DNA of 64,000 bases from Candidatus Falkowbacteria bacterium (GCA_043801965.1 JAZDLN010000024.1:6670-70669); one strand, 5' to 3'. Numbered from the stretch's first letter, positions 40,573 through 64,000 are shown. Translations and numbers: made by a program. The notes: generated from the letters alone by a model not told the origin.

Positions 40573-40579
40573 AACTTAT

Positions 40580-42784: not shown

Positions 42785-42788
42785 TTTT

Positions 42789-44394: not shown

Positions 44395-44438
44395 ATCTTA
44401 TTTGCTTTGACGCTCAAATTATAGAGGCTAAAACCCAT

Positions 44439-44843: not shown

Positions 44844-44885
44844 AAATGATCGGGTATAAAAACTTTATATTAGAAAATAATATAA

Positions 44886-45386: not shown

Positions 45387-45430
45387 ACGTACTTTAATAT
45401 TAATAATTTATCACGTTCCGGATCATTAAA

Positions 45431-45829: not shown

Positions 45830-45888
45830 ATGATTTTACTATAGTTATGATTTAAAAATAAATTAATTGCATGATCTTTCTCGAAATC

Positions 45889-46374: not shown

Positions 46375-46490
46375 TACAATTCACAAATTTTATCACAAAT
46401 ACGCGATTAGTCGTCAGAAATATCCTTATTGTATTTTAGCATTTGTGTTTTTGATTCGTAATCATTGTAAAATTATAAATTTCGATACAC
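46375..46490. repeat. intercistronic imperfect hairpin, CACAAAT word family (member 1)
   Basis: Left is attacaattcacaaattttatcacaaatac, right is gcatttgtgtttttgattcgtaatcattgtaa. Confidence 0.6.
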
Positions 46491-46940: not shown

Positions 46941-47054
46941 TTCATTATGATTACAAATTCACAAATTTAATCACAGATAACACAAATTTTCGGCTGATAT
47001 GAAAGTATATCTTGTATTTGTGAATTCGTGTCCTGATTTGTGTATATGTAATTA
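46941..47054. repeat. intercistronic hairpin, CACAAAT word family (member 2)
   Basis: Left arm 46950-46987 is attacaaattcacaaatttaatcacagataacacaaat. Right arm 47015-47052 is tatttgtgaattcgtgtcctgatttgtgtatatgtaat. Fills the whole gap between start 46940 and stop 47055. Confidence 0.85.
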
Positions 47055-48089: not shown

Positions 48090-48201
48090 ATTTTTATTAC
48101 AAATTCACAAATTTAATCACAAATAACACAAATACACGATCAGCGCGATATAGAGTATTTGTGAATTTGTGTTCTGATTTGTGTATTTGTAATATTATAA
48201 A
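48090..48201. repeat. intercistronic hairpin, CACAAAT word family (member 3)
   Basis: Left arm 48096-48135 differs from member 2's left arm at 1 position over the shared 38 nt. Right arm 48155-48193 is gtatttgtgaatttgtgttctgatttgtgtatttgtaat. The loop is unrelated to member 2's loop. Confidence 0.9.
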
Positions 48202-49878
48202 TCATTCTTTCGCCACTCTTAAAACCTCCGTCATTGTCGTGACACCGTTTAAAACCTTATCCACGCCGTCGGAAAGCATTGTGGACATACCGCCCGCTAC
48301 GGCCTCCTTTTTTATCGCGTCATTCGATTCTTTGGCCAATATAAGTTTTCTGATACCTTCCTTTGTTTCTAAAACTTCATATATGCCGATCCGTCCGCTA
48401 AATCCCGTTTCGCCGCAAACCTTGCACCCCTTGCCCCTGTATAATCTTAACTTATCAAGATCGCCATATCCGCCGGTCTTTAGTATTTCCAAAAGCGCGG
48501 ATTCGCTCCGGATCGTATCTTTCTCCTCCGCGGAGAGTTCGTAAGAAACGCGGCATTTCGCGCAGATCTTCCGGACGAGGCGCTGGGCGATGATCACCTT
48601 TACCGTGGCGGCAACCAGGAACGGTTCGATTCCCATATCGATCAAACGGGGCAAAGCCGAGATCGCGTCATTAGCGTGAAGGGTCGACAACACGAGGTGG
48701 CCGGTCATGGCCGAATTGACGGCGATTTCGGCGGTCTCGGAATCCCTCACTTCTCCGACCATGATGATATCCGGATCCTGGCGGACGATGGCCCGAAGGC
48801 CCTCGGCGAACGTCAGATTGGTCTTAGGGTTGACCTGGATCTGGCTGACGCCGGCGATATCGTATTCAACGGGATCTTCGATGGTCGAAATATTAACTTC
48901 TTTGGTGTTAAGGATCTTAAGCATCGCGTAAACGGTCGTGGTCTTGCCGCAGCCGGTCGGGCCGGTAACCAGAAGCATACCATGAGGATTTTTGACGGCG
49001 CGTTCTATTTTCCGAAGATCATTGGCCGAGAGGCCGAGATCATTAAGATCAATATCCCTGTTCTCGGCTACCAGAAGACGTATGACGATATTTTCCCCCT
49101 GGGTCACCGGCACTATGGAGACTCTGACATCGATCGTCTTTTCGCTGGTTTTAAACCGGAATTTGCCGTCCTGGGCCGATCGGTGCTCGTCAATCCGCAT
49201 TTTAGCCATTATTTTAATGCGCGACAAAACCGGTTCGCTTAAAACTTTCGGCATTTCCAGGACATCGTGCAATATTCCGTCTATCCTGAACCGCACCACT
49301 AGTTTATCGCGATAAGGCTCTACGTGGATATCCGAAGCCTTGCTTAAGAAACCGTTCTCGAGAAGAAGGTCGACTATGGCGACGTTCACCCGGCTCCCGT
49401 CCTGCTCTTCGCCTTTTTTAAGAAGGCCGGAAAATTCTTCCTCTAAACTTATCCGATAAGCGGATAATGCCTCTTTAAGATCGCCCGGGGTAATATAATA
49501 GACTTTGGCCGGTTTACCGAAACGTTTTTCCAGGAGGTGCTTCATTTCAAGGTCTTCCGGGTCCGACATGCCGACTTTTATGTTTTCCTGATCCGCCGCG
49601 AAAACGATCACTCTCCGCGCCCGGGCCACCGGCTCCGGTATTCCGTTAAGGATGTTTTCATCGATCTTTTCGTTCCTTAAATTTATGAAAGCATAATTAA
49701 AAGCATTAGCGATAAGTTGCCCCAATTGTTCGTCCTTTATGAGGTTCTTTTCCGTCAGCCATTCGCTTAAAGAGATCTTTTTGGCCTCCGCCTCCTTGGC
49801 CGCGATATCGAAATCGTCCTTAAGGATATGGCCGGGAGATACTAAAAGTTCCTCTAATTTTTTTTTATCTATATTCAT
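48202..49878 (-). CDS. pilB: type IV pilus assembly ATPase (GspE/PilB family)
   Basis: 558 aa. N-terminal T2SSE_N-like domain, Walker A GPTGCGKTT, Asp/His boxes, tetracysteine motif CAKC...CKVC. Confidence 0.93.
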   Translation of the reverse strand: MNIDKKKLEELLVSPGHILKDDFDIAAKEAEAKKISLSEWLTEKNLIKDEQLGQLIANAFNYAFINLRNEKIDENILNGIPEPVARARRVIVFAADQENIKVGMSDPEDLEMKHLLEKRFGKPAKVYYITPGDLKEALSAYRISLEEEFSGLLKKGEEQDGSRVNVAIVDLLLENGFLSKASDIHVEPYRDKLVVRFRIDGILHDVLEMPKVLSEPVLSRIKIMAKMRIDEHRSAQDGKFRFKTSEKTIDVRVSIVPVTQGENIVIRLLVAENRDIDLNDLGLSANDLRKIERAVKNPHGMLLVTGPTGCGKTTTVYAMLKILNTKEVNISTIEDPVEYDIAGVSQIQVNPKTNLTFAEGLRAIVRQDPDIIMVGEVRDSETAEIAVNSAMTGHLVLSTLHANDAISALPRLIDMGIEPFLVAATVKVIIAQRLVRKICAKCRVSYELSAEEKDTIRSESALLEILKTGGYGDLDKLRLYRGKGCKVCGETGFSGRIGIYEVLETKEGIRKLILAKESNDAIKKEAVAGGMSTMLSDGVDKVLNGVTTMTEVLRVAKE

Positions 49879-49888
49879 GATAATACGG

Positions 49889-50317
49889 CTATTTTTTCAT
49901 CCCACCTGGATCGACAATGCCCAGATATTTTCTGATCTTCTTTATGACCTCTTCCAGAGAAATATTGGCCTTGATCAGATATTCCCGGGCTCCCAGGTCA
50001 ATGGCTTTTTTCATGTCCTGGTCCTGATCCAGGTTCGTGAAAACTATGATCGGTATGCTTCCGTTGTTCTGTCCGCTTATGGCCTCTCTGGTCTCTTCGC
50101 GGTTAAGTTCTTCCAAGACCTCGAACCCGTCCTTCTTCGGCATGATAAGATCAAGAAGGATAATATCCGGTTTTACGGTCTTGATCTTACTTAAAGCCTC
50201 ATCTCCGTCGTAGGCCGCCACCACTTCGAATCCCGCCCGGGAAAGGCTTTCGCTTAAAGCCATCGAGATGAACTTATCGTCTTCGGCCAATAAAATACGA
50301 TATTTCTTATTGGGCAT
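49889..50317 (-). CDS. single-domain response regulator (CheY-like)
   Basis: 142 aa. ILLAEDDKF...DIILLDLIMPKKDGFEV...IIVFTN...EYLIK. Confidence 0.9.
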   Translation of the reverse strand: MPNKKYRILLAEDDKFISMALSESLSRAGFEVVAAYDGDEALSKIKTVKPDIILLDLIMPKKDGFEVLEELNREETREAISGQNNGSIPIIVFTNLDQDQDMKKAIDLGAREYLIKANISLEEVIKKIRKYLGIVDPGGMKK

Positions 50318-50325
50318 ATCTTTTT

Positions 50326-50715
50326 CTATTTTAAATATGTTTTAATTTTTTCTATGACCTCGTTCATGGAGAAATTTGATTTTATCAGGTAATCGGCGGC
50401 TCCCAATTCCCGCCCCTTTTCAATATCCGAATCTTGACCCAAATTCGAAAGAATTATGATGGGGATATTCTTTATGGCTTCATCGGCCTTGATATCCTTT
50501 AATACTTCAAAGCCGTTCTTTACCGGCATAATCAGGTCCAATAATACCATATCCGGTTTTTCCTGTTTTATTTTTTCCAGGGCCATGACTCCGTCCATGA
50601 CCGGAATGACGGTAAAACCGGCGCGCTCCAATCCGTCTTTATAAGCGCGGGAGATGAACTTATCGTCTTCCGCTAAAATGATCTTAAATTTTTTTTGTTC
50701 GGTTGCGTCTGGCAT
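50326..50715 (-). CDS. single-domain response regulator (CheY-like)
   Basis: 129 aa. IILAEDDKF...DMVLLDLIMPVKNGFEV...IIILSN...DYLIK. Confidence 0.9.
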   Translation of the reverse strand: MPDATEQKKFKIILAEDDKFISRAYKDGLERAGFTVIPVMDGVMALEKIKQEKPDMVLLDLIMPVKNGFEVLKDIKADEAIKNIPIIILSNLGQDSDIEKGRELGAADYLIKSNFSMNEVIEKIKTYLK

Positions 50716-50805
50716 ATTTTTGTATTAAGTATAAAGTATTTGTATTAAGTAAAACGCGAATCGATCGATCCCTTCGGCGCAAAACGCCCTGAACTTGATA
50801 CTGTT

Positions 50806-53634
50806 TTATGAATAGCTAACCTCGCTGATGGCTCCAGGCAGGGTCTTACTCCCCTGCTTTTCCACCATCCCCTTCGTGGGCAGGGCCACGTAAAAAACAG
50901 TGCCCTCGCCCTGTGCCGACTTAAACCATATCCGTCCTCCGGAATTTTCCACTATCATTTTAGAGACATAAAGCCCCAATCCAGTTCCCTCGGTTTCGTT
51001 CTTGATGGCGTTATCGGCACGGAAGAATTTTTCGAAAATCCTGCCCTGCGCTTTTTCGGGAATGCCGATGCCGCTGTCCTTGATCGTTAACAAGTATTCG
51101 CCGTTATCTTTTTTAATCTCCACGTTGACCCGGCCGCCGCTTTTGGAATAACGCACGGCGTTAGTGATAAGATTGTGTATTACCTGGCGGATTAAATTTA
51201 CGTCAACTGCCAAAGGGGGAAGATTCTTGCTCGCGCCGCCAAAAATTATGCTGACGCCCTTTACCTGGGCTAACGGCTCTATTTCTTTTATTATATTAAG
51301 GGTAAATTCGTGCAGATCCGTGGATTTCGGTTCGACCCTTAAACTACCCGACTCGAGCCTCGATAGGCTTAAGAGGTCGTTTACGAGCCTTACCATCCTT
51401 TCGGTGGATTCATAGATATTATCGAGATATTCCCGCTGTTCTTTTTTTAGCTTGCCCACCTGTTCATTGAGCATCATTTCCGTAAAAAGCTTAATGGCGG
51501 TCAGGGGCGTCCTTAACTGGTGCGACGCGACCGAGACGAATTCCGTTTTCATCCGATCGACCTCTTTAAGGTGGGTGATATCATGGAGGATTACGGCTCC
51601 TCCGAAAACTTTTCCCTGATTGTCCTTTACCGGGATGGCGGATATCTCAAAAACATACCTCTCGCTCAGCTGAGCTTCTTTTTTAAAAAGCCCTTCGCCC
51701 CCCTCCAGAGCCTCGTTGATCGTGGCGTTCATGTCGAAACCGCTGAATAGTTTATAAAAAGAGGATAAAACGAAACCGCTCCGGGAAAGACCGGTAAACT
51801 TCGTGGCGGCGGCGTTAACGAGGGTAATTTCTTTTTCGGCATCGAACATGATAACGCCGTCGCTTAAATTCTCGACAAGCGATATCGTCCGGGAATGCTG
51901 GGAGCGCATAAGGGCGCCTATCCTCGCCAAAGAAAGGGAGAAAGTGGCCAGCATCGCGTCGGCCAGACCGCTGATCTTTTTATCCGCCAAGCCGGTTCCG
52001 CCGGAAGACAGATGGATTATTCCCATGATATCGTCGCCGACCCTTAGGGGCAGGACAACGGTTGACTCCGCTTTGCCGGCCCTATTATTATTGATTTTTT
52101 CGCCTATTATAGAAGGCTGGATATTCCTTATTATCTTAACCGCTTTTTTCAATTCTTTATTATCGCTCTTTTGCAGGAACCCGATAATATCCTCGCTCGC
52201 TCCCGCCAGAAAGCTATCACTAACCTCGTCACGCAAAAATATTTTATACACGAATTCGCCCTCCTTTACCGGATCGATTATAAGATAGACGGCGGCGCTG
52301 TGTTCGATGACCCCGCCTAAATAACTATTTATGAAATTCACCGCCTTATCGATATCGAGGACGCCAGCGAGCTCATCGCTCAGGGCTTTTAACGCGACCA
52401 GCTCCTGGCTTCTTTTTTCAAGAGCGTCGTTGGCCTCCTTAAGTTTTAACTGCGACTCGGACACGTCATCAAGAATATTCAGGGTCGCCGATCGCTGCTC
52501 CTTCAGATAAACCTGATCCCTTTTCATGCTGGCCAAAGTCGCCGATAACTCTTCCGTTTTGGCGGCCACCTCTTTCTCAAGTTCCAGGTAATATTTTTTT
52601 TCCTTTTCCCGCGCGGCCAGCAAATCGCTTCCGGCCTTATTCACTGCTTTACCTAAAGCTCCCAGTTCATCTCCAGGAGAAATATCGACCCGATAACCGT
52701 AATCCCCGCGGCCCCAGGCCTCGGCCGCTTTAGCCAGGCTGCGGATGGGCTTAATGAAGGTATCAGCCACAACGGCGGCCATAAGCACCACTAAAAAAAG
52801 CATCAATCCGGCCAGAAGAAAGGGTTCCAGCCGCGATCCGGAAGGTTCGAACTGGTTTATTTTGTTAGTGAAAAATATCGTAAAAAGAATGGAGATGGCC
52901 GCGACCGCCACGAAAGAAATTATGAATTTATTCCTGATAGAAAACGGCCGAAAATGGATATCCAAAAAATGCAGACGATACATGCTGTATAGGATCGAAC
53001 CGAGGAATATCGTCGCTCCGATGCCGCCGGCCGGAAAAATAAAAATACCCAGGCGGGGAAAAATTATTTCGGTCGTAGACGCTAAGACGGTCGCCGCTAA
53101 AGCACCGAGAGAAATGATCTTCCGCTGCTGCTTTACGGCTTCAGTGGGTTCATTGCGGCGGGGCCCGACCAATATCATGATTATGCCGGCAAACAAAGCC
53201 AGCTCCCAAATATTTACCGCTAAATAAGCCGGACCGGGCATATAATTCAGATACTGAGTGCTTATATAACCCTCCTGATAGGCGCCGGGCATGAACATAA
53301 GTATCGTAGTTATTGTCGAAATCGCGAAAATCAACCGGCAGCGACGCCGGTTTTCGGAACCGGTAAAGCTCAAAAACAAAAAACAATAACAACTGGCTAG
53401 CGCAAAAGTAGCGGCGGATGTCTCAAACGCCCAAAGCCATTTCAAATACGGTTCAATCACCTGAAAACCCGACCTTATAAGCTCTCCCGCCTGCCACAAG
53501 ATCACGAATATAATAGCGGCAAACAGATATCGCAACAACCTCTTTCCCTTGATCCGGCCGGCTAAAAATCTGAGAGAAAACAGATTAACGATAATAACAA
53601 GGGCGGTAACGACAAAATAAATGCTTAGTTCCAT
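50806..53634 (-). CDS. multi-TM sensor histidine kinase (HAMP-GAF-PAS-HisKA-HATPase_c)
   Basis: 942 aa. About 7 N-terminal TM helices, HAMP (IKPIRSLAKAAEAWGRGDYGYRV), H-box SHQLRTPLTAIK, and N/G boxes (NLITNAVRYS, DSGIGIP, GTGLGLYVSK). Confidence 0.9.
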   Translation of the reverse strand: MELSIYFVVTALVIIVNLFSLRFLAGRIKGKRLLRYLFAAIIFVILWQAGELIRSGFQVIEPYLKWLWAFETSAATFALASCYCFLFLSFTGSENRRRCRLIFAISTITTILMFMPGAYQEGYISTQYLNYMPGPAYLAVNIWELALFAGIIMILVGPRRNEPTEAVKQQRKIISLGALAATVLASTTEIIFPRLGIFIFPAGGIGATIFLGSILYSMYRLHFLDIHFRPFSIRNKFIISFVAVAAISILFTIFFTNKINQFEPSGSRLEPFLLAGLMLFLVVLMAAVVADTFIKPIRSLAKAAEAWGRGDYGYRVDISPGDELGALGKAVNKAGSDLLAAREKEKKYYLELEKEVAAKTEELSATLASMKRDQVYLKEQRSATLNILDDVSESQLKLKEANDALEKRSQELVALKALSDELAGVLDIDKAVNFINSYLGGVIEHSAAVYLIIDPVKEGEFVYKIFLRDEVSDSFLAGASEDIIGFLQKSDNKELKKAVKIIRNIQPSIIGEKINNNRAGKAESTVVLPLRVGDDIMGIIHLSSGGTGLADKKISGLADAMLATFSLSLARIGALMRSQHSRTISLVENLSDGVIMFDAEKEITLVNAAATKFTGLSRSGFVLSSFYKLFSGFDMNATINEALEGGEGLFKKEAQLSERYVFEISAIPVKDNQGKVFGGAVILHDITHLKEVDRMKTEFVSVASHQLRTPLTAIKLFTEMMLNEQVGKLKKEQREYLDNIYESTERMVRLVNDLLSLSRLESGSLRVEPKSTDLHEFTLNIIKEIEPLAQVKGVSIIFGGASKNLPPLAVDVNLIRQVIHNLITNAVRYSKSGGRVNVEIKKDNGEYLLTIKDSGIGIPEKAQGRIFEKFFRADNAIKNETEGTGLGLYVSKMIVENSGGRIWFKSAQGEGTVFYVALPTKGMVEKQGSKTLPGAISEVSYS

Positions 53635-53732: not shown

Positions 53733-55007
53733 TTATTTTTTAAGTTCGGCCGCTTGGCCCTCAAGCTCTTTGATCCGATTTTTAAGTTCGATCATTTTAG
53801 TCTCCCGGCCGACAGTGAGCTCATTGAACCTTTCGAGCTCCCGGTTTCTCTCAATAAGGCTTTCTTCGACTTTTTTCTCCCTGGTTATGTCCCGTCCGGT
53901 AACTAGAATCCCGACGATCTTTCCGTCCTTTTTGATCAGATCGGAACCCTCGTATATTTGCAGAACTTTGGTTTCGCCGGACTTACTTTCTAAATTTACC
54001 TCAAATTCCAAATGATGATGGCCCAGGAACTCCTGTGCTAAGGCGGTCAGGGCGACCTTAACAGAATCTTTGCTTAAAAATTTTGTAATAGACTCTCCGA
54101 TTATTTCTTTTTCGTCATAACCGGATATTACCTGGGCGCTATGGTTGGCGAAGACTATTTTTCCGGTTTTGGAAAGTATCAATACTATTTCTTTCATTTT
54201 GCTCAGGATAAATTCATATCTGGCCTCGCTTTCCTTAAGCGCCGTTTCTTTTTCTTTATACTCGGAAACGTCCTGAAAAACGGCCACTATTTCTCCTGAA
54301 GGCAGCTTAAATACGTGGTTGTCCATCCATTGAACTATCCGTTTATCTTCATAAAAAGTGGGCGGTTGAGTTTCCGGCTGGCCGGTTTTCCAAACCCTTT
54401 GAAAAACCGCCGCTAACCCCATTTTAGCGATCCCGGGAAACGCCTCGAATACGCTTCGCCCGACAACCTCTTCTTTTTTAATCCGGCATATTTTTTCTCC
54501 GGCCGTGTTTATGTCCTTAAAAATAAAATCCGCTCCGTCATCCGCCGCCTCGTAAACGGCTACGCCGTTATACATATGATCGAAAAGATCCTTGAACCTT
54601 ACTTCGCTTTCTTCAAGCTTACTTTCGACTTCCCGGCGGTAAAAAGCGGTTTCGATGGCCGCGTAAAGCTCACGCTCGTTAAAGGGCTTGCTCAGGTAGC
54701 CGTAAGGCCGCGCCTTTTTCGCCCTTTTTACCATGTCATCGTCGGTATAAGCGGTCAGGAAGATTATCGGACTTAGATCGCCGATCGCTTCCGCCGCCTG
54801 GATGCCGTCGAAATCACCCGGCAGCTTTATGTCCATCAAAACCAGATCCGGCTTCTCTTTTTTGCATATTTCGACCGCTTCTTTTCCGGAAGATGAATAT
54901 CCGGCTATTTCATAGCCGAATTTTTTCAAAGTCTCTTTTATGTCCTGGACCACGATATTTTCGTCCTCCACGATCAAAATTGATTTTTTCGATGATAGCT
55001 TTTTCAT
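53733..55007 (-). CDS. response regulator receiver + two PAS domains + C-terminal coiled coil (no DNA-binding output)
   Basis: 424 aa. ILIVEDENIV...DLVLMDIKLPGDFDGI...IIFLTAY...GYLSKP. PAS-like segments. Coiled-coil tail NRELERFNELTVGRETKMIELKNRIKELEGQ. Confidence 0.85.
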   Translation of the reverse strand: MKKLSSKKSILIVEDENIVVQDIKETLKKFGYEIAGYSSSGKEAVEICKKEKPDLVLMDIKLPGDFDGIQAAEAIGDLSPIIFLTAYTDDDMVKRAKKARPYGYLSKPFNERELYAAIETAFYRREVESKLEESEVRFKDLFDHMYNGVAVYEAADDGADFIFKDINTAGEKICRIKKEEVVGRSVFEAFPGIAKMGLAAVFQRVWKTGQPETQPPTFYEDKRIVQWMDNHVFKLPSGEIVAVFQDVSEYKEKETALKESEARYEFILSKMKEIVLILSKTGKIVFANHSAQVISGYDEKEIIGESITKFLSKDSVKVALTALAQEFLGHHHLEFEVNLESKSGETKVLQIYEGSDLIKKDGKIVGILVTGRDITREKKVEESLIERNRELERFNELTVGRETKMIELKNRIKELEGQAAELKK

Positions 55008-55025: not shown

Positions 55026-56048
55026 TTAAATCGTTTTGGGAAATTTTATGACGCACTTCGTTCCTTTATCTTTTTCGGAAACCACCCTGATGCTTCCGTA
55101 TATCTGCTGTGAGAGGGTATTGACGAGCGTCATGCCCAATGAGTTGGCGGAATTGACGCTTGTCATATCGAAGCCGACGCCGTTATCGCTCACGGTCAAT
55201 TCATAATTTAATTCATCGGCTGATTTTAAGCCGATATTTATTTCACCGGTCCTCTTATCGGGAAAAGCGTATTTAAGGGAATTAGTAACGAGTTCGTTTA
55301 TGATCAAAGCGCAGGGAATGGCCCCGCTGATGTTCAGTTCGGCTTTAATAACGTCTATTTTATAAGAGACCAGGTTTCTGTCCACCAAAAAAAGATTGAA
55401 CAGATTTATGATCAAATTTTTGATATATTCGCCGAAGTCGATCCGGCCGATATCCGGCGATTGATAAAGACTCTCGTGCACGAGAAGGATTGACTTTATC
55501 TGCCCCTTGCTCTCTTCGATCAATTTTCTGGCCGATCCATCCTTGATGTTGCGGGATTGCATGTTAAGCAGGCTATAGATCACCTGCATGTTGTTCTTTA
55601 CCCGATGCTGTATTTCCTTTAAAAGTACTTCCTTTTCGACAAGATCGGCCTTGATCCGCTCCTGGTTGTTGCGATTTTCAGTAATATCTTCGACTATGCA
55701 AAGAAGTTTTTGGGTTTCTCCGTCTTTATTTTTTACGGGAATGCCGTAGTAGCTGCGGAAGCTTTCTTTTTTTCCGATAAAAGAAATATATTTTATCCCC
55801 TCGATCCGAAATGACTCCCCGGAGAGGCCTTTTTCAATATATTCCAAAAGTCCGTATTCTTTATAAGTCGGTATTTCCCGTATATTCTGCCCCTCTATTT
55901 CCCCGGCTTCTTTTACTCCGCTTATTTTTACCATTTCCGAATTAAAAAATTCAACCTGCCCTTCCTTATTGATTATATAGGCGCCGAAGGGAAGATTGTT
56001 TAAGGCCTCTTTTGACATGGCCGGCAAAATAAAAATGTTGTCTGTCAT
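55026..56048 (-). CDS. cytoplasmic PAS sensor histidine kinase, HisKA_2/HWE-type
   Basis: 340 aa. H-box EIQHRVKNNMQVIYSLLNMQ. ATPase motifs ELVTNSLKYAF, DNGVGF. Confidence 0.8.
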   Translation of the reverse strand: MTDNIFILPAMSKEALNNLPFGAYIINKEGQVEFFNSEMVKISGVKEAGEIEGQNIREIPTYKEYGLLEYIEKGLSGESFRIEGIKYISFIGKKESFRSYYGIPVKNKDGETQKLLCIVEDITENRNNQERIKADLVEKEVLLKEIQHRVKNNMQVIYSLLNMQSRNIKDGSARKLIEESKGQIKSILLVHESLYQSPDIGRIDFGEYIKNLIINLFNLFLVDRNLVSYKIDVIKAELNISGAIPCALIINELVTNSLKYAFPDKRTGEINIGLKSADELNYELTVSDNGVGFDMTSVNSANSLGMTLVNTLSQQIYGSIRVVSEKDKGTKCVIKFPKTI

Positions 56049-56179: not shown

Positions 56180-56644
56180 TTAAAACGGTATATTTTCAAC
56201 CTTGATCTCCTCTTCGTCCGGCTCGTCGCTTCCGCCGCTTTCCACGGTAATGACGGCGGAGGCTTCTTCCATCGGCAACGGCGGTTCTTCCGCGCCCCGG
56301 GAAGCGGTAACGCCTCCGGCCCGGTCAAGCATGATCATGTTGTCGGCAATGATCTCCGTGCGGTAACGCTTGACTCCGTCCTGCCCGAGCCAATCGCGGG
56401 TTTGCAGGCGTCCTTCGATATAAACCTTCGAGCCTTTGCGCAGATATTGGCCGCAAATTTCGGCCAATTTTCGCCAGGCGATCACGTTGTGGTAATCGGC
56501 CCTTTGCTGCTTATTGCCGGCCGCGTCCCGCCAGACAAGGTTAGTGGCGACGCTGAATGACGCGACGGCCAAACCGGCTGGAGTATTCCTGATCTCCGGA
56601 TCGCGGGTCAGGTTGCCGATAAGCATGGCTTTGTTAAGATTCAT
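56180..56644 (-). CDS. ssb: single-stranded DNA-binding protein
   Basis: 154 aa. MNLNKAMLIGNLTRDPEIRNTPAGLAVASFSVATN...YHNVIAWRKLAEICGQYLRKGSKVYIEGRLQTRDW. Acidic C-terminal tip ...EEEIKVENIPF. Confidence 0.93.
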   Translation of the reverse strand: MNLNKAMLIGNLTRDPEIRNTPAGLAVASFSVATNLVWRDAAGNKQQRADYHNVIAWRKLAEICGQYLRKGSKVYIEGRLQTRDWLGQDGVKRYRTEIIADNMIMLDRAGGVTASRGAEEPPLPMEEASAVITVESGGSDEPDEEEIKVENIPF

Positions 56645-56928: not shown

Positions 56929-59067
56929 TTACGAAGAACGAACGGGAAGTTCGATGATAAATTTAGTGCCTTTCCCTAGACGGCTCTCCGCCCGTATCGC
57001 GCCGCCGTGTTTTTCCACTATTTTTTTGCATATCGCCAATCCCAGTCCGGTTCCTTTTTTGTCTGGAAATGATTCGTTGCTGATCCGGTACATCTTTTCG
57101 AAAATATGGGAAATATGTTTTTTATCTATGCCGATGCCGTCATCAGCCACTATTAAAACGGCTTCTTTCCTTTTTCGGTAAAGATCAAGGATTATCTTGC
57201 CTCTTTGCCCGGGTTTCATGAATTTAAGGCTGTTCGAGGCCAGGTTCATGAGCAGCTCCTCAACCTCGGACTTGTCCCCGAAAATATCGATATCCGGTTC
57301 GATGTTTCCGGCGACATCGATGTTTTTATCCTCGGTGATTATCTTTATGTTATCGATCGATTCCTCGAGAAGTTCGCTTAAGCTGAAAACGGTTTTTCTC
57401 TCCTCCCCGTCCCTTTCCTGCCTGACGAGCCGGAGCATATCGTAGATAAAGCGGGAGATGTGATCGATATTGTGCTCAAGCCGGCCGATCTCCTTCTTGT
57501 CCTTTATCTGGTTATTAAGCAGGCTTAATTCGCCCCTGATTATCGTAAGCGGCGTCTGCAGGCCGTGGGCGATCTCCATCATCATCTGCCTCTGCTCTTC
57601 CTGCAGGCTTTTTATGTTCTCCGTCCTTTCCACCACCTTTTTTTCCAGTTCTTTGGAATGGTTTTTTACCTTTTCGTACAGCTGGGCGTTTTCGAAGGCT
57701 ACCGCCGCCTGGCAGGCGAATGTTTTTAAAAGATTGATGTCTTCGCTCGTATAATAATCGCCGGATAATTTTTTCCCTAAAGCGACCAGACCGATTAGAT
57801 GGGTGCCGGATTTTATCGCTATCGCCATCTCAATGCCGTAATCGGCGCCGAAAGACCGCGCCTGCTCTAAGGAACGCCGTCGTTCGCCGGTTTCGTCCTT
57901 AGGTAGCGAGTCTAATTCCTGCTGGAGATCGGATATGACCAATACCGTATCCGGATGGATCTCGATCGCCCGCTTTAATTCGGCCGACAATCCGACCTTG
58001 GTCTTCCTGACTATTTTATCGTGGCTGAATATAAGATTCTGTCCAGGCACTATTATGTATAAGCTTTCCGGCCTTAAAATGTCCAGCAGCTTATCAGTAA
58101 TTTTCTGCAGCAAGGCTGATAAATTAAGATTCTTGTTGAGTATGTCGCTAAGCTCGTAGATCGCTTCGGAATAGTCGTATTTATCTTTGAAAAAAAACCT
58201 ATCGGTGGCCCGCCGGAAAAACCTGTCCAGGGGAGGTATTCCGTATATGCCGGCCGCGGTCGTCAAGAGTCCGACTATTATCATGGTCAGGTTGGTAATT
58301 TCCTGGAAGATCAGGCCCAGGATCAGGACGCCCAGGATATACACGACCGCCACGAAGCTAAAAAGGACCGAATAGATCAATCCGCGCTGAATCACGATCT
58401 TTATGTCCAAAAGCTGGTGCCGGATTATGGCGTAGGAGGTAAAACCGATGAAAAAAACTGAAAACTGTGGCCCCAAATTAAAAAATTTTAGAATTCCTAC
58501 CGCTGGCAACAAAACGCTAAAAACAATTCCCCCTATCAACAGCATAAAAAATCCAATTTCCAAATATAATATTTGAGCTCTTTTTTTTGCGTCAGAATGC
58601 CGATAACTTAAGCCCAATTTTATTGCGCCATACACTAAACCAACAAAACTAAAAACTAAAAAGAACCAATATAAAACTCCCGGAATAAATTGCGCCGGTG
58701 TATTTTCTGAAAAAAATGCTTCACCAACGTCATATTTTGAAAAAGCGAATAAACCGACAACTAGGGTAGGAATAAAAAATACACTGAACTTTAATTTTGT
58801 TAGCTTATTATTAATGAATAACTCAACAAAACAAAGATAGAGGCTGATAAAAATTGATCCGCTGATCAGAGCCAAGCCACTCCACAACACCAAGGAAAAG
58901 CGCTCAGAAGCTATATCTGCTAACGCATTGGACCCCAGCCAAACGGCATCTGCGATAATTATTAAACCTAAATATCGTGCTAAATTTTTTTTCTGCTTTA
59001 AAATAAAAGCCGCAAATCCAAAACAGATTATTGTAAGGATCGCGGCTGTGTAAGTAAAAATAAACAT
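56929..59067 (-). CDS. multi-TM sensor histidine kinase (membrane domain-GAF-HisKA-HATPase_c)
   Basis: 712 aa. About 8 TM helices. H-box AHGLQTPLTIIRGE. NLASNSLKF, DDGIGID, GTGLGLAICKKIVEKHGG. Confidence 0.9.
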   Translation of the reverse strand: MFIFTYTAAILTIICFGFAAFILKQKKNLARYLGLIIIADAVWLGSNALADIASERFSLVLWSGLALISGSIFISLYLCFVELFINNKLTKLKFSVFFIPTLVVGLFAFSKYDVGEAFFSENTPAQFIPGVLYWFFLVFSFVGLVYGAIKLGLSYRHSDAKKRAQILYLEIGFFMLLIGGIVFSVLLPAVGILKFFNLGPQFSVFFIGFTSYAIIRHQLLDIKIVIQRGLIYSVLFSFVAVVYILGVLILGLIFQEITNLTMIIVGLLTTAAGIYGIPPLDRFFRRATDRFFFKDKYDYSEAIYELSDILNKNLNLSALLQKITDKLLDILRPESLYIIVPGQNLIFSHDKIVRKTKVGLSAELKRAIEIHPDTVLVISDLQQELDSLPKDETGERRRSLEQARSFGADYGIEMAIAIKSGTHLIGLVALGKKLSGDYYTSEDINLLKTFACQAAVAFENAQLYEKVKNHSKELEKKVVERTENIKSLQEEQRQMMMEIAHGLQTPLTIIRGELSLLNNQIKDKKEIGRLEHNIDHISRFIYDMLRLVRQERDGEERKTVFSLSELLEESIDNIKIITEDKNIDVAGNIEPDIDIFGDKSEVEELLMNLASNSLKFMKPGQRGKIILDLYRKRKEAVLIVADDGIGIDKKHISHIFEKMYRISNESFPDKKGTGLGLAICKKIVEKHGGAIRAESRLGKGTKFIIELPVRSS

Positions 59068-59199: not shown

Positions 59200-59910
59200 T
59201 TATATTTTTATTATCGTAAGGGCGGCATAGCCCAAACTTTCAGGATCATGCATATAATTTCTGAAAATACCGTACAAACAGACCTTGTTATTTTTGTAAA
59301 AACCCGTAAGAACGGGATCGGGTATTACTGGAGATGGCAATAAAGAATTGGTCTTAAGAGAGAGGGCTTTGCTCAATCGGCCGCCTACTTTTTCTACGCT
59401 CCTTATTGCGTACCACAATACGATTTCTTCCTGATTTTGGATTAATCCCGAAAAGCTATTGTTTATTCGTGTGCTCTCAATGTATTTTTTTAAACCAGGC
59501 ATACGAACCATGCCAACGGCATATTTCTTACCATATTTTATCATGAAACCGTATAATTCATCCATTAAGTTTTTGCCAGCACCTGGACTTTCAGAGCAAA
59601 TACTTACTACATATAAAGAGCTACCCATGGAATTGTGCGTCTTTTTCGTAAATCCGAAATCCGTATCGTGATCGAATGAAACTAAATTCGGATTAGCTAA
59701 ATCGAAATCAATGAGCTGAAAATAAACATAACCTTTTATGTTGTTGTCTTTTTCCGCGACCAGAAATCCCTGGGGGTGGGTTTTAAACCAGGCGTTAAAA
59801 TACTTTTTACCGAAAATAGCGGTTCCGGCTTTTCCCCAAATTCGCTTTTCGATCAAGGCGAGTTTCTTGAAATCAGCCGGTTGCGCGTTCCTGATTATAT
59901 AATTTTCCAT
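59200..59910 (-). CDS. putative GNAT-family acetyltransferase
   Basis: 236 aa. IIRNAQPADFKKLALIEKRIW...FLVAEKDNNIKGYVYF...ICSESPGAGKNLMDELYGFMIKYG fits GNAT motif A/B order. A hairpin AAAACCGC-a-GCGGTTTT at 59125-59141 lies downstream. Confidence 0.5.
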   Translation of the reverse strand: MENYIIRNAQPADFKKLALIEKRIWGKAGTAIFGKKYFNAWFKTHPQGFLVAEKDNNIKGYVYFQLIDFDLANPNLVSFDHDTDFGFTKKTHNSMGSSLYVVSICSESPGAGKNLMDELYGFMIKYGKKYAVGMVRMPGLKKYIESTRINNSFSGLIQNQEEIVLWYAIRSVEKVGGRLSKALSLKTNSLLPSPVIPDPVLTGFYKNNKVCLYGIFRNYMHDPESLGYAALTIIKI

Positions 59911-59963
59911 TGAGACTCCTATCCATAATAATTATAGCTGAAAATGGCTGAATAATAAACGGC

Positions 59964-60374
59964 TTAGGGATAAATATTCTTAACCGGGAAACGTTTGCCC
60001 CGAAGTTTAAGTTCTTGGTCGATGTTCTCGTCTTCGATCTCAAAGGTATTTTTTATGTAATCGATCGCTTTTTGAGCCTCAAAGTCCTTGCAGGAAAAAA
60101 TATCGATCGCGATAAAGCCCTTTTTCGAATACGTGTGGAAAGCGATGTGCGATTCCTTGATAAAGACGAATCCGGAAACGCCGGCAATGGCCGCTTCCTT
60201 AAATTTCCCTAATTGCGGCACGCTGAATTTATGCATGCCGATAACTTCGGGAAAACCGTCCAAAAAATCGAATAGAAGCCCGATATCGTCAAGCTTTTTC
60301 GGATCGATGCCGTAAGCTTCGACCATAAGATGCGGTCCGTAATATCCAGTCTTGGCCAGTCGTTTTTTTCCCAT
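59964..60374 (-). CDS. S-adenosylmethionine decarboxylase-family pyruvoyl proenzyme (class 1b, SpeH-like)
   Basis: 136 aa. GPHLMVEAYGIDPKKLDD...GVSGFVFIKESHIAFHTYSKKGFIAIDIFSC parallels the SpeH pattern [31 protein letters not shown], including the ES self-cleavage site. Confidence 0.8.
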   Translation of the reverse strand: MGKKRLAKTGYYGPHLMVEAYGIDPKKLDDIGLLFDFLDGFPEVIGMHKFSVPQLGKFKEAAIAGVSGFVFIKESHIAFHTYSKKGFIAIDIFSCKDFEAQKAIDYIKNTFEIEDENIDQELKLRGKRFPVKNIYP

Positions 60375-60385
60375 CTTCCCCCTCC

Positions 60386-61687
60386 TTATTTAAGGATGAT
60401 TGGCGCTAAAATACGATCGCTTTGCCAGTACTCACAGCCTTTTTGCGGGCAAACCCGGCAGATCCGGCTGTCTATATTCCGAAAACCGGCCTCGCCCAGC
60501 TTCTTTAGGTGTTCCGGAGAAAAACGGTCTATTTCGTCAGAGTAGTACGTAAGGATACCGCCGCTCCTAAGGAGGCGATAAGCTTCCTTAAAGAAAAAAA
60601 AGTGGTTTTTGTGAACCTCTTCTTCCGTCAAAGGATAAGTATCGAACAAAATGCCATCAAAACTGCCGTCTTTAAGAGTCGGGGTAACTTCCTGCCAGAA
60701 TCCGAAAAGCGGTTTAACCGGGCGCGAAGCGGAACGGGCGAAAGATAAAAGATCGTCATAGATCTTTTTATTGGCCTCGATCACGGCATGGCTCGAGATG
60801 GCGTGTTTTTGGATATAACCCGCCGATATTCCCATGCCGAATCCCACCTCAAGGATATCGCCGCCCCGAGCACAAACGATCTCCGCCAGATCTTTCATGT
60901 AGTTATCTTCCCAGTCTTCCATTACCGGGTGGTTTTCGATCTTAAGGTTATGACCGTTGCATGAAACGGATGAATTTTTCCATTTATCATAGCAATAGCT
61001 GAACCCTATCCTTAAACGGTTTCTGAAAGTCGCGTCCCGCGCGTCGCCGAAAAAACCGGCGGATGTCGCTTTTTTCCGATAATAAAGCCCGGCGATACCG
61101 GCCAGAATAACGGTAGAGGCGAGCGTAACGGCAAAGAGCGGCCAATCCGCGAACCACCAGGCGTAAACCGTCCAGGCGGCGTTTATGAAGCCGTAAAAAA
61201 TAACGAGATGGATATCGATCGCGCCTACGCTAGGACTGCGGCGCAATTCCCACAGCTGGAATAATAAAAATACGACATTGGCGAACGCGAACAAGGAATA
61301 AAAAAATAGCTTAACCGGAAGAACGATCATCGCGAAGAGAGCGCAGCCGCATAAAAACAATAACGCGATATGCCTTCGTGAAAGACCGTTGAATTTAGCC
61401 AATCCGATGACGATCGGGATCGTAAAAATAAAAAGCAGCCCGTTTATCGCTAAGGCGCCTTCATGCCGTTCCAGTCCGTAGACGAAAAGGGAAGCGAAAA
61501 GGAAGGGCAGGAACAGGAACAGATCGACGGACAAAGACCGTCCGGATCGATTCCGCCAGATTATCCGGTTCTGTCTCAAGAACAGGATCGCCTCAACAAT
61601 CGTGAATAAAATTACGACCCCGGCGCAGATGGTTTCAAAATTTAAACCAAACTGCCGCCATTCGAGAAAACTTTCGATCCAATCCAT
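60386..61687 (-). CDS. fusion: ~7-TM domain (PQ-loop-like, tentative) + guanidinoacetate N-methyltransferase (GAMT/RMT2)-like class I methyltransferase
   Basis: 433 aa. C-terminal half PVMEDWEDNYMKDLAEIVCARGGDILEVGFGMGISAGYIQ...FDGILFDTYPLTEEE...LLRSGGILTY...EAGFRNI is collinear with human GAMT as I recall it ([40 protein letters not shown]...FDGILYDTYPLSEET...LLKPGGVLTY...EAGFRRE). The N-terminal half has about 7 hydrophobic helices. Confidence 0.75.
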   Translation of the reverse strand: MDWIESFLEWRQFGLNFETICAGVVILFTIVEAILFLRQNRIIWRNRSGRSLSVDLFLFLPFLFASLFVYGLERHEGALAINGLLFIFTIPIVIGLAKFNGLSRRHIALLFLCGCALFAMIVLPVKLFFYSLFAFANVVFLLFQLWELRRSPSVGAIDIHLVIFYGFINAAWTVYAWWFADWPLFAVTLASTVILAGIAGLYYRKKATSAGFFGDARDATFRNRLRIGFSYCYDKWKNSSVSCNGHNLKIENHPVMEDWEDNYMKDLAEIVCARGGDILEVGFGMGISAGYIQKHAISSHAVIEANKKIYDDLLSFARSASRPVKPLFGFWQEVTPTLKDGSFDGILFDTYPLTEEEVHKNHFFFFKEAYRLLRSGGILTYYSDEIDRFSPEHLKKLGEAGFRNIDSRICRVCPQKGCEYWQSDRILAPIILK

Positions 61688-62130
61688 CTTAGAGCTCCTT
61701 TCCGCTGTTTATGCTTTAATTTTTTAAAGAACAATAAATTATTTGCGTCTGATTATTGATATAACTATAGCACAATCGATATGAAATTTTTATAAAAAAA
61801 ATATAAAGAACAAATTAAACTTACTTACCTTAAACAAAATAAAGCATTAAAAATATTTAAAAATATGAAGAATAAATTAAAAATAATAAATTTAAGTCGG
61901 TAAAAAAATAATTGTGTATAAAAACAGCCCTGGAGAAAAAGGCTGTTTTGTGATTGGGGAAATTTTATATCTTTTTTCAGAATCTTTCAACTAATTTCTT
62001 TACATGGGCTTTCGTATTTTAAAATCGCCAAACTCTTTATTTCCAACCGCCCGAATTTATCCCGGGATTTTTTTATTTTTCCCGCGACATGTTATAATAT
62101 TACTATACTTAATTTTTCTAAATTTTTTTA

Positions 62131-62513
62131 TGACTGACGACAAACAAATTACTACTAACGAAATCCCCTGGTACTTCGGCCGTAAATTCTGGGGACTAAT
62201 GATCGGGCTATCGGCTTTGCCGGGTTTATTTATGACGGTATCCTATGCCCATCTATGGGGTATAATTATGTTCATTTTAGGTATATCGGAAGGATTTGTC
62301 CACTTGGTATTATCCAAGCTAAGTCTATGGGGTGCTGTCAAATTAACTACTATACTGTATTATGATATATTATACTATATTATATTATTGTTGCTTTTTT
62401 ATTTGTCATTCAGAAAAAAAAGGGTTAATATCGTGCTTTCTATAATAATAATAATAATAATAATAATAAGTACTTATGGATTAACTGTAATTGCCGTCGC
62501 TTCCAAATTTTAA
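62131..62513 (+). CDS. small AT-rich hypothetical membrane protein
   Basis: The track ORF starts at 62004. I prefer ATG 62131 (MTDDKQITTNEIPWYF...), preceded by catgTTATAATatt. 3-4 TM helices. Contains a poly-Ile run. Its stop overlaps the stop of the convergent 62510 gene. Confidence 0.45.
62442..62468 (+). repeat. (ATA)9 trinucleotide microsatellite inside the small membrane ORF
   Basis: Nine consecutive in-frame ATA codons encoding I9. Confidence 0.95.
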
Positions 62514-64000
62514 TTACCTAATTTGAATATACTTACCTCAAAGCCAAAATCCAAAAACTCTGGAATATGAATATCGCCCCATCCGGTATGAATAATTTTT
62601 TTATCGGGCACTCTGAATTCTAATTTGATCGCGTCCGTAAATCTGTCCGGCGCAAAGACGTATTCTATAAATTCCTCAATTTCGGGGAATTTTTTTATGA
62701 TTTGCGCGCAGACCGGCTTAAGCATCGGCTCGTCTTTGAGCAATATCTTTTTCATGAGCCAGGGCATATTAGCGGGCAGATCCGATTCCGTGCCGGTGAA
62801 TACACACTGGTTATACGGACTGGCGATTTCCAGATAGGGCGTTCCGTCCGTAGTCGTGCCGGTAAAATTCAGCCACTGAACATCTTCTTTGTTTATATCT
62901 TTGATCTCTATTCGGAGCGGACCGGAAATATTTTCAGTTGTCGTGTTCTTAAGTCTGATATTCGTGTGCTTAATGCCGGTTTTGGGGTCGTAATGCCGCC
63001 AAGTTTTGTGCGTTTCAACACTTTCTGTTATATCCTGCCATCTTGGCGCGCCGATGGCGTAGCGGGAGAAATGATTAGTGGTAATAGTTAGAATGTTATT
63101 GAAAGTATTTATAATCGTAGGCAATTTTTCCCAAATATCAGTATCTTCATTATAGAGATACGCGCTTAAATACTCCTCCTCTATTCCAAGCTCGTCTACC
63201 AGCTGCTGGTCATATTTCAGGCTGACTTCGGCCGCAAATTCGTAATTGGTCAGGCTGGAAAAGATGTCCCAATAAGCCGGCAACATTATTAAATCGTTCA
63301 AATTTTCTCCTTGTGTTATAATCTCGTCGTATTTATTCACTTCAAGGGTGTGTCCGGCAATCGGGCTTTCCGCGAACTGTAAAATGATATCGGATTTGTC
63401 CAGATCGAAAAAATATTCGTTGTTATTTATCGTGAATACCGGCGTGATGGCGGTAACACCGGACCATTCAATCGGGTTTTGGAACATAACACCGTCCTCC
63501 CGATAATACGGGCCTTGTGGGCCGCTATTATCGATAAATAAATCACTTGCATCAACTCCCCATCTTCCCTCATAACCCTTAAGCCATCCCGGATTACTAT
63601 CTAAATCAAACTTTATATCCCAAACAGTGCTGCTGGCAACATCGCCACTATCCGAAGTGTGATCACTATAACCGAGTATACCATGCAAACCGTTATCTCC
63701 GTTATTCGGATAATTGGCGTGCGAACCGCGGGCCACGAACGATTTGACTCGATCTCCCTCTTTTTCTATTTCCTCACTATCCCAGGAGTGGCGCACCGAA
63801 CCGTATTGAAACGGCGGATTTACTTCGCCCTCGTTATGATGTTGAGAATAAGCCACATACTTGGGTTCTTCGGTGTCTTTATCTAAAAACACCATGACCG
63901 TTTCCCAGTCGCCTTCGTGGTTATTTATTCCGCCCCAGGCTTCCCAGTCGTTGAACGCGTAAAAATACCAGTACTGCAAAACAATGAATTCGTGCGTGTA
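62510..64000 (-). CDS. Vps62/DUF946-like domain protein, N-terminus beyond window edge
   Basis: YWYFYAFNDWEAWGGINNHEGDWETVMVFLDKD matches the DUF946/Vps62 signature (YW.FY..N......HEGDWE). The frame is still open upstream of the track's TTG start (YTHEFIVLQYWYFY), so the gene is 5'-partial. Confidence 0.55.
   Translation of the reverse strand, partial: YTHEFIVLQYWYFYAFNDWEAWGGINNHEGDWETVMVFLDKDTEEPKYVAYSQHHNEGEVNPPFQYGSVRHSWDSEEIEKEGDRVKSFVARGSHANYPNNGDNGLHGILGYSDHTSDSGDVASSTVWDIKFDLDSNPGWLKGYEGRWGVDASDLFIDNSGPQGPYYREDGVMFQNPIEWSGVTAITPVFTINNNEYFFDLDKSDIILQFAESPIAGHTLEVNKYDEIITQGENLNDLIMLPAYWDIFSSLTNYEFAAEVSLKYDQQLVDELGIEEEYLSAYLYNEDTDIWEKLPTIINTFNNILTITTNHFSRYAIGAPRWQDITESVETHKTWRHYDPKTGIKHTNIRLKNTTTENISGPLRIEIKDINKEDVQWLNFTGTTTDGTPYLEIASPYNQCVFTGTESDLPANMPWLMKKILLKDEPMLKPVCAQIIKKFPEIEEFIEYVFAPDRFTDAIKLEFRVPDKKIIHTGWGDIHIPEFLDFGFEVSIFKLGN

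Follow-up and report, generated by a model that had tools for sequence, protein, structure and literature searches.

A recurrent gene cassette linking a GAMT-like methyltransferase to a SpeD-like decarboxylase, with a candidate role in the modification of guanidino amines

A stretch of 64,000 nucleotides from a Candidatus Falkowbacteria bacterium (GCA_043801965.1 JAZDLN010000024.1:6670-70669), hereafter called the window, carries three consecutive genes that are the subject of this study. The first encodes a 433-residue fusion of a seven-transmembrane (7-TM) SWEET-like domain with a domain related to guanidinoacetate N-methyltransferase (GAMT), the second a SpeD-like proenzyme of the pyruvoyl S-adenosylmethionine decarboxylase (AdoMetDC) family and the third a GNAT-like protein, and a gene for a sensor histidine kinase follows on the same minus strand (Table 1). 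An original prediction made from this DNA had placed the three open reading frames (ORFs) where we also find them; the gap between the first two genes, given there as 12 nt, measures 11 nt, and the one between the SpeD-like and the GNAT-like gene is 53 nt. Each of the three is preceded by a Shine-Dalgarno-like GGAG, a candidate promoter lies within the 316-nt AT-rich spacer 5' of the fusion gene, and the kinase gene begins 132 nt downstream of the GNAT-like gene. On the minus strand no convincing terminator was detected until a strong one at 56171-56139, past a gene for a single-stranded-DNA-binding protein (SSB). Searches of the window and the operon surroundings against Rfam families gave no match, and thus neither a guanidine nor an S-adenosylmethionine (SAM) riboswitch. 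A protein identical to the fusion (P0001) is on record as a hypothetical protein from a Candidatus Falkowbacteria metagenome-assembled genome (MAG).

Table 1. Features of the cassette and its immediate surroundings, in window coordinates
Feature	Position	Strand	Length	Basis
Candidate operon promoter, TTGAAA-17-TAAAAT	61962..61990	-		consensus scan, 10/12 positions match
SWEET-like 7-TM/GAMT-like fusion gene	60386..61687	-	433 aa	ORF
7-TM SWEET/SemiSWEET-like domain, residues 1-211	61055..61687	-		profile, AlphaFold2, Foldseek, internal repeat
GAMT/RMT2-family (PF27704) class I SAM methyltransferase domain, residues 212-433	60386..61054	-		PDB GAMT, PF27704
SpeD-like class 1b pyruvoyl decarboxylase proenzyme gene	59964..60374	-	136 aa	ORF; PF02675, TIGR03330, PDB 2iii/1tlu alignments
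Gene for divergent GNAT-superfamily protein, CurA/GphF 'GNAT-like' type	59200..59910	-	236 aa	ORF; 18-orthologue profile
Sensor histidine kinase gene	56929..59067	-	712 aa	Pfam: HisKA_7TM N-terminal domain, GAF, HisKA, HATPase_c

Relatives of the methyltransferase (MT) turned up in 159 species when a single genome was scanned for each. We fetched 80 loci and analyzed the 6 kb to either side of the MT gene by ORF calling and iterative searches. The fetched loci come from Patescibacteria, DPANN archaea, Gemmatimonadota, Acidobacteriota, Desulfobacterota, Xanthomonadales and actinomycetes, and from 'Gammaproteobacteria' and 'Bdellovibrionales' MAGs with small genomes; locus counts given below refer to a total of 82. 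In 17 of these the MT gene is followed by the SpeD-like and then by the GNAT-like gene. The 17 belong to Falkowbacteria and other Parcubacteria, to Doudnabacteria and Yanofskybacteria, to 'Gammaproteobacteria' MAGs and to one Thermoanaerobaculia MAG, and the trio singled out by the original prediction is thus co-conserved across several lineages. The MT and SpeD-like genes adjoin or overlap in about 20 loci and are fused into a single chain in seven database clusters (P0007/8/10/11/16/18/24) as well as at loci L013 and L016. As the gene order recurs and the first two genes are fused elsewhere, the trio is a real module; a chance juxtaposition of the three genes was considered and is ruled out by the fusions and the recurrent synteny.

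The decarboxylase need not be of the SpeD type. Single chains that join the MT to a decarboxylase dependent on pyridoxal phosphate (PLP) were found in eight clusters (P0058/61/74/81/101/106/112/113), and the best PDB matches of this partner are the Lys/Orn decarboxylase 5gjm (8e-49), ornithine decarboxylases (ODCs) and the arginine decarboxylase of a chlorella virus. A SpeD-like gene is present in 25 loci, an ODC-like PLP decarboxylase in 15 and both in none, and the two appear interchangeable. MT and SpeD-like genes are adjacent or overlap in about 20 loci, and the MT is fused to two types of decarboxylase, which argues that they are functionally coupled. The GNAT-like gene is confined to loci that have the SpeD-like partner (17/25 vs 0/15 PLP loci), always directly downstream of it, and a search seeded with this gene yielded two short metagenome contigs, one of them with a 7TM kinase directly downstream. 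Literature searches on GAMT-decarboxylase fusions, GAMT in Patescibacteria and methylagmatine returned no description of this operon or of the fusions, and the study of SpeD neofunctionalization (PMC10407285) makes no mention of a methyltransferase partner.

Several types of neighborhood can be distinguished. In type A, with the order response regulator > MT > SpeD-like > GNAT-like > 7TM kinase, we count the 17 loci with the full trio and 2 that do not have the GNAT-like gene; it occurs in several candidate phyla, in some 'Gammaproteobacteria' MAGs, in one Thermoanaerobaculia MAG and in the metagenome locus L084. Note that the window has no OmpR-type regulator directly 5' of the MT gene, unlike most of its type-A relatives. 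Type B (c11 > c8 > GARS-like ATP-grasp > MT > kinase, in some cases followed by a response regulator) comprises about 13 loci from Magasanikbacteria and 'Bdellovibrionales' MAGs, 2 of which have a SpeD-like gene inserted. Here c11 is a small Cys- and acid-rich protein and c8 a membrane protein of 313 aa that matches EamA weakly, and the c11/c8/ATP-grasp genes lie about 1-6 kb 5' of the MT in L033, L035, L037, L041, L045, L046, L055, L072 and L076. The GARS-like ATP-grasp ligase may do an equivalent amide-forming job and would then offer another way to acylate the same product. Type C (kinase < c10 < MT > PLP decarboxylase <, where c10 is a membrane protein) accounts for 15 loci, mainly from Saccharibacteria, and type D (c12 > MFS transporter > MT) for 6, from Silanimonas and Aquimonas (L066, L067, L071, L074 and L078, with L030 similar). 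In about 30 loci the MT has none of these partners within 6 kb.

The C-terminal half of the fusion protein is collinear with GAMT, as had been proposed. Residues 242-433 match the rat and human enzymes with E=5.9e-41 (1xcj) and E=3.8e-40 (3orh), identity across the domain is about 45-50%, and Pfam PF27704 (GuanidinoAc_N-MeTrfase) is assigned to the identical protein P0001. When 83 prokaryotic homologues are aligned with the rat and human enzymes, D134 and E89 of rat GAMT (D349 and E304 in the window protein) are conserved in 83 of 83 sequences, E45 (E260) and the motif I glycines G67 and G69 (G282 and G284) in 82, and the D-T-Y-P motif is essentially invariant. The 13 residues 168-180 of rat GAMT, however, are missing from all 83 prokaryotic homologues, the window protein included, where the junction T380-Y381/Y382-S383-D384-E385 stands in their place. 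We also considered TYYSDE at this junction as a new acidic pocket and rejected it: rat GAMT has Y-T-D there, and only the Glu (for Ile184) and the loop deletion are new.

In GAMT, Glu45 and Asp134 reportedly grip the guanidino group of the substrate, and the backbone of Leu170/Thr171 is said to hold the carboxylate of guanidinoacetate. Asp134 has moreover been proposed as the proton acceptor for the methylated guanidino nitrogen (PMC12471008). The conservation pattern points to guanidino- and SAM-binding machinery that is intact and to a carboxylate-binding element that has been lost, with agmatine as the obvious candidate substrate; a decarboxylated guanidino compound is suggested because the residues for guanidino group and SAM are kept, segment 168-180 is gone and the enzyme conserved alongside acts by removing a carboxylate. 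JGI labels many of the homologues 'guanidinoacetate N-methyltransferase', and with a GAMT match of E=6e-41 the window protein might be taken at face value as a true GAMT that makes creatine. We find this hardly credible, as the segment is absent throughout the prokaryotic homologues, the conserved partner is a decarboxylase and no amidinotransferase-labeled gene occurs among the recurrent neighbor clusters of the 82 loci. The likeness to GAMT thus comprises a class I SAM methyltransferase domain over about 190 residues with motif I, E89, E45 and D134-T-Y-P, whereas the window relatives differ in the deleted segment and in being joined to or partnered with decarboxylases rather than following an amidinotransferase, and the window protein also in its fusion to a membrane domain. 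One further homologue, P0107 (586 aa), consists of two GAMT-like domains in tandem with a low-complexity, Asn-rich linker between them and looks eukaryotic, not bacterial.

The second gene encodes, directly downstream as originally described, a pyruvoyl AdoMetDC-family proenzyme, as evidenced by matches to PF02675 (84.8 bits, E=6.5e-24) and to TIGR03330 (78.1 bits vs a cut-off of 75.65). Its residues E74-S75-H76, H80 and C95 align with S63, H68 and C83 of the Thermotoga maritima enzyme, and Ser75 is the predicted pyruvoyl precursor, with cleavage at ES/H. Many SpeD-family proteins are arginine or ornithine decarboxylases, and a proline in the central region that is invariant in true AdoMetDCs is not conserved in SpeD-derived arginine decarboxylases (Li et al. 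2023, PMC10407285). We infer that this diagnostic residue is P71 of the motif HTWPE, since it is the sole proline between S63 and C83 in both reference AdoMetDCs. The window protein reads HTYSKKG at this place, with Ser83 instead of the proline, and the proline is missing in 19 of the 20 type-A cassette SpeD-likes. Among the 20 matches found, the nearest relative from outside the cassette is P0128 from Woesearchaeota (44% identity), whose gene is followed by an agmatinase gene (TIGR01230, 249.5 bits), the arrangement of the verified Woesearchaeota arginine decarboxylase (PMC10407285). A rough neighbor-joining tree without bootstrap support places all MT-linked SpeD-likes in one clade with the window protein, and the P0128 group is nearer to this clade than the T. 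maritima and Aquifex enzymes. The SpeE motif GGG[DE]G was not found in the six frames of the window or in the ORFs of the 82 loci. By the missing proline of HTWPE, its place in the tree away from the references and the lack of this motif nearby, the protein does not resemble a bona fide SpeD/SpeH, and it probably decarboxylates arginine (or ornithine) and not SAM.

A non-canonical spermidine pathway has to be weighed against these data. In such a pathway the SpeD-like protein would be a real AdoMetDC, the ODC-like fusions would provide putrescine, and the GAMT-like domain would serve as an aminopropyltransferase that uses decarboxylated SAM (dcSAM). An AdoMetDC and an ODC yield exactly the two substrates of spermidine synthase, each of them is fused to the same MT-fold domain, the TIGR03330 score is just above the cut-off and no canonical SpeE motif is seen near the genes. 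Nevertheless we give this scheme a slim chance, as the two decarboxylases never share a locus, which fits replacement and not cooperation, and the SpeD-like enzyme of the window has lost the proline diagnostic of AdoMetDCs. Users of dcSAM are marked by an acidic substitution of the GGGDG kind, a feature of SpeE; the methyltransferase does not show it, and its motif I and D-T-Y-P are identical to those of mammalian GAMT.

The cassette SpeD-likes share with the published arginine and ornithine decarboxylases SpeDA and SpeDC the small class 1b fold, the Ser, His and Cys residues, the loss of the AdoMetDC proline and the lack of a visible SpeE partner, and both groups occur in the candidate phyla radiation (CPR) and in DPANN archaea. 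The published enzymes, however, cluster with agmatinase, AguA/B, SpeY, HSS or SpeE and lead to putrescine, spermidine or homospermidine, whereas those of the cassette cluster or fuse with the GAMT-like methyltransferase, an arrangement absent from that work (PMC10407285). In the SpeD-likes of the other loci with the membrane fusion, L001 (1452-1943), L002 (6684-7160) and P0125, an insertion of ~28 residues is located just before the ESH site; the window protein does not have it.

The assignment of the third protein as a putative GNAT stood in part. Taken alone, the window protein matches PF00583 with E=0.044 and 14.5 bits, under the cut-off of 20.7 bits, and a homologue search with this single protein returned only itself. 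The same family matches 8 of 18 orthologues, the best with E=2.3e-4, and a profile built from the alignment of these 18 orthologues (25-33% identity) does recover GNATs in the PDB, with GphF (6mfc, E=6.4e-5) matched over the N-terminal half and the C-terminal DPVLxF motif, followed by CurA (2ree), an SxtA-like protein and assorted acetyltransferases. The family has a putative CoA-binding turn, P-G-A-G-K in the window protein and GAG(K/R) in general, with a Gly that is almost invariant; the motif PDPVL is conserved as well. The loading-module domains CurA, GphF and SxtA are thus the best profile matches and have a similar size (about 220-240 aa), but the window protein stands alone, outside any polyketide synthase. 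With low confidence we regard it as a candidate acyl-CoA-dependent N-acyltransferase that would act on the amine product.

The methyltransferase of the window is fused to a membrane domain of seven helices, in agreement with the ~7 TM segments initially counted. In an AlphaFold2 model of residues 1-211 (predicted local distance difference test, pLDDT, 84; predicted template-modeling score 0.79) the helices comprise residues 17-46, 54-73, 77-100, 104-122, 126-150, 159-178 and 182-210 and form two triple-helix bundles connected by the linker helix TM4, with the conserved Gln39 and Gln144 at the 'PQ' positions. The two bundles arose from a genuine internal duplication: hhalign aligns residues 12-101 with 122-208 at a probability of 95.8% (E=6.6e-9, on a 32-sequence family alignment) and pairs LFLRQNRIIWRNRSGRSLSV with LLFQLWELRRSPSVGAIDI, the two segments that the original prediction had likened to the duplicated PQ-loop motif of cationic-amino-acid exporters. 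The duplication is borne out, but the closest relatives are SemiSWEET/MtN3 proteins and not these exporters. A four-sequence profile of residues 1-211 matches the SemiSWEET 4rng on repeat 1 (E=8.8e-6), with Q39 over the Q of 'PQ', and 9kax on repeat 2 (E=0.021), with 4x5m at E=0.002. Pfam MtN3_slv matches all four members of the profile (best 8.7e-6), the window protein by itself scoring 16.6 bits against a gathering threshold of 23.7 bits; NCBIfam SemiSWEET_2 matches the fusion protein at E=0.0069, far under its cut-off, and the Pfam PQ-loop family gives no match to the domain at E<=10.

The SWEET/PQ-loop superfamily fold is likewise evident from a Foldseek search of the PDB, in which OsSWEET2b (5ctg) ranks first with a TM-score of 0.64-0.66 over about 210 columns, followed by AtSWEET13 (5xpd, 0.64) and then by the KDEL receptor and cystinosin, 7-TM members of the same superfamily. 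Cystinosin is the only point of contact with PQLC2/LAAT-1/Ypq-type exporters among the fold matches, and it comes below the SWEETs. Loops 1, 3 and 5 and the tail after TM7, as read from the sequence, are rich in Arg and Lys, in agreement with the positive-inside rule, and suggest an outward N-terminus and an inward C-terminus; in this topology the SAM-dependent domain would therefore be on the cytoplasmic side. With SWEETs the domain shares the 3+1+3 architecture of two homologous triple-helix bundles and the Gln at the 'PQ' position. Bacterial members of the superfamily are usually SemiSWEETs with three TM helices; the window domain differs from these as a full 7-TM form, and from SWEET and SemiSWEET transporters in general in being joined to an enzyme.

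An exhaustive profile search for the membrane domain returned 496 relatives (388 representative clusters at E<=1e-10), nearly all of which are stand-alone proteins of about 200-225 aa. The fusion was found only in the window protein, in P0002-P0005 and in L001 and L002, and it is a recent, lineage-specific joining, in Falkowbacteria-like organisms, of two otherwise independent families. A look-up of names for the stand-alone clusters gave one informative label, 'uncharacterized protein with PQ loop repeat', and a metagenome scan with one of the stand-alone proteins found nothing. Other lineages carry different membrane proteins near the MT (c8, c10 or the major facilitator superfamily (MFS) transporter), a variety that fits a small molecule being transported. 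Three points go beyond the original prediction: the membrane fusion is rare, a PLP decarboxylase can take the place of the SpeD-like enzyme, and the MT is linked to a two-component system, as described below.

A histidine kinase adjoins the MT in 47 of the 82 loci and a response regulator in 30, and in 38 loci the kinase has an N-terminus of the HisKA_7TM type. The position that the kinase occupies in the window is shared by L001, L002, L003-L019, L027 and L084. As the pairing of MT and kinase is kept through three different gene orders, it is unlikely to stem from inherited synteny alone. Yeast Rmt2 belongs to the GAMT/RMT2 family, and the persistent neighborhood of kinase and regulator would also suit an Rmt2-like protein-arginine methyltransferase that modifies a two-component or other protein, with the decarboxylase and the GNAT as unrelated neighbors. 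We attach little weight to this explanation, however: the MT is covalently fused to amino-acid decarboxylases of two unrelated folds, which speaks for a role in the metabolism of small molecules, and at many loci no two-component system accompanies it.

The kinase may either sense the substrate or the product, or simply regulate the operon. A more far-reaching possibility, which we consider speculative and unlikely, is that the cassette is a small-molecule signaling system of ultra-small (CPR) bacteria. Its product would be a cationic autoinducer-like compound, e.g. N-acyl-N-methylagmatine, exported by the SWEET-like domain in Falkowbacteria and sensed by the HisKA_7TM kinase and the OmpR-type regulator, through which the compound would feed back on the operon. 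The persistence of the MT-kinase pairing in three gene orders is consistent with such a role. In the phcB-phcS-phcR loci of Ralstonia a methyltransferase makes a signal that is sensed by the adjacent two-component system. These loci have in common with the cassette that a SAM methyltransferase gene shares an operon with genes for a response regulator and a membrane-bound histidine kinase, but the methyltransferase is of another family and the product is a fatty-acid methyl ester, so that the analogy is architectural only.

Every component of the cassette is a known kind of protein, and none is orthodox in its functional family. The tests named along with the original prediction, on co-conservation of the genes, on the fold of the membrane domain and on the kinship of the decarboxylase, came out in favor of its tentative interpretation. 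Homology, fold, internal duplication, gene fusions, synteny and conserved residues are what we observe here; from them we infer a substrate, a sequence of reactions, a transport step and a regulatory logic as follows. We hold it to be about an even call that the operon makes a modified decarboxylated basic amino acid, which would most likely be an N-methylated, N-acylated agmatine. The pyruvoyl SpeD-like enzyme would cleave itself at Ser75 and decarboxylate L-arginine to agmatine. The cytoplasmic GAMT-like domain, in a pocket without the loop that GAMT uses for the carboxylate of its substrate, would then use SAM to methylate the chain-proximal guanidino nitrogen by means of the Asp/Glu pair of GAMT, and the CurA/GphF-type GNAT would acylate the free primary amine. 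The data do not constrain the order of the steps, and methylation and acylation, or decarboxylation and methylation, could swap. In the Falkowbacteria lineage the methyltransferase would sit at the cytoplasmic mouth of a 7-TM SWEET-fold, uniporter-like domain, a channel that might admit the precursor, which would be trapped by modification, or release the product. The 7TM-GAF histidine kinase, in relatives together with an OmpR-type regulator, would control the operon or respond to its product.

Biochemical parallels to the methylated agmatine proposed here are found in antibiotic biosynthesis. The GAMT-like enzyme BlsL of the blasticidin S pathway methylates the delta-N of a beta-arginine moiety, and does so only when the neighboring amine is acylated (PMC5572114). 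It is thus a bacterial GAMT-like enzyme that acts on an arginine-derived guanidino group and not on guanidinoacetate, and its need for an acylated amine parallels the pairing of MT and acyltransferase in the cassette. Compared by description, it differs in that its substrate is a peptidyl-nucleoside in a Streptomyces antibiotic cluster and in having neither a decarboxylase partner nor a membrane domain. N-methylagmatine units also occur in the actinomycete antibiotic saskemycin, where they are made by a different methyltransferase (PMC12637814).

A variant of the agmatine scheme would start from ornithine or lysine, with the decarboxylase producing putrescine or cadaverine, the GAMT-like domain N-methylating a primary amine and the GNAT acetylating the diamine. 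Ornithine decarboxylases derived from SpeD occur widely in the candidate phyla radiation (PMC10407285). The best PDB matches of the PLP partner are, as stated, Lys/Orn decarboxylases and ODCs, and polyamine N-acetyltransferases are GNATs, with weak matches of PaiA and diamine acetyltransferases to the GNAT-like profile. The variant strikes us as improbable all the same, although less so than the spermidine and creatine schemes: a methyltransferase about half identical to GAMT that keeps D134 and E45 almost without exception retains the means to bind a guanidino group, and to our knowledge every characterized member of the GAMT family, namely GAMT, BlsL and yeast Rmt2, methylates a guanidino nitrogen.

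Several points weigh against the arginine-based pathway as drawn. The sequence of the SpeD-like enzyme cannot tell an arginine from an ornithine decarboxylase. The diagnostic proline is kept in the MT-linked SpeD-likes of L015, L037, L054, L072, L021 and L034 as well as in the agmatinase-linked P0128, and because of these cases the proline test works in one direction only; the tree, moreover, includes only two bona fide SpeD references and no characterized SpeDA or SpeDC. The GNAT assignment is weak, single-sequence structure prediction reaching a pLDDT of 31, and the histidine after DPVLxF, the catalytic residue in CurA, is not conserved in the 18 orthologues, which makes a decarboxylase role for this protein doubtful; acyl transfer is an assumption. 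Within 6 kb of the MT, a decarboxylase is missing from about half of the loci, the membrane fusion is rare and hence not essential to the pathway, and the substrates of the SWEET family cannot be read from the fold.

If the proposed pathway is correct, a methylated guanidino amine absent from textbook metabolism is a product of many Patescibacteria as well as of some DPANN archaea and scattered other bacteria, and the enzyme responsible is a relative of GAMT that is now automatically annotated as an enzyme of creatine synthesis. For SpeD-derived decarboxylases, so far described in routes to putrescine and spermidine, the methyltransferase would then be a downstream partner of a third kind. The window protein provides a clear-cut example of an enzyme covalently linked to a prokaryotic 7-TM SWEET-fold domain, and the fusion gives a tractable handle on what a large uncharacterized family of bacterial 7-TM proteins transports. 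The linkage to the 7TM kinase suggests that the product is sensed or regulated, which bears on how host-dependent bacteria communicate or cope in arginine-rich niches.

Past the cassette kinase, the minus strand of the window continues with the SSB gene (56180-56644), a PAS-HisKA_2 kinase gene (55026-56048) and a gene for a receiver-PAS protein (53733-55007). In the relative L001 (49% identical) the order kinase, HisKA_2 kinase, receiver-PAS is kept at 5018-6939, without SSB, and on account of this shared order the two signaling genes may belong to the cassette in the Falkowbacteria-like lineage. A second large sensor kinase of 942 aa (50806-53634, minus strand; HAMP, PAS, HisKA, HATPase_c) has an N-terminus that is also matched by a profile made from the 7TM region of the cassette kinase. 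Upstream of the operon we find a hydrophobic 169-aa ORF without a family match (62004-62513, plus strand) and a 489-aa protein with a weak NPP1-like match (62510-63979, minus strand; E=0.025).

Farther away, a type IV pilus cluster occupies positions ~39300-50720 of the minus strand, with a PilB-like ATPase (48202-49878), a PilC-like T2SSF protein (47055-48089), PilM with an SH3 domain (42868-44394), two stand-alone receiver proteins and several small ORFs whose N-termini are of the pilin type (GFTLIEL). Genes for a Fic-domain protein (34163-35110, plus strand), for an arginyl-tRNA synthetase cut by the window edge (1-2520, minus strand) and, within 10483-13081 on the minus strand, for a tyrosyl-tRNA synthetase and a MacB/FtsX permease with its ABC ATPase are ordinary housekeeping context. 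A giant ORF of 5,793 aa on the minus strand (15291-32672) contains fibronectin-III, Laminin_G_3 and DUF2341 domains and probably encodes a giant surface protein; the G+C content of its region is 52-56%, compared with 39-48% elsewhere in the window.

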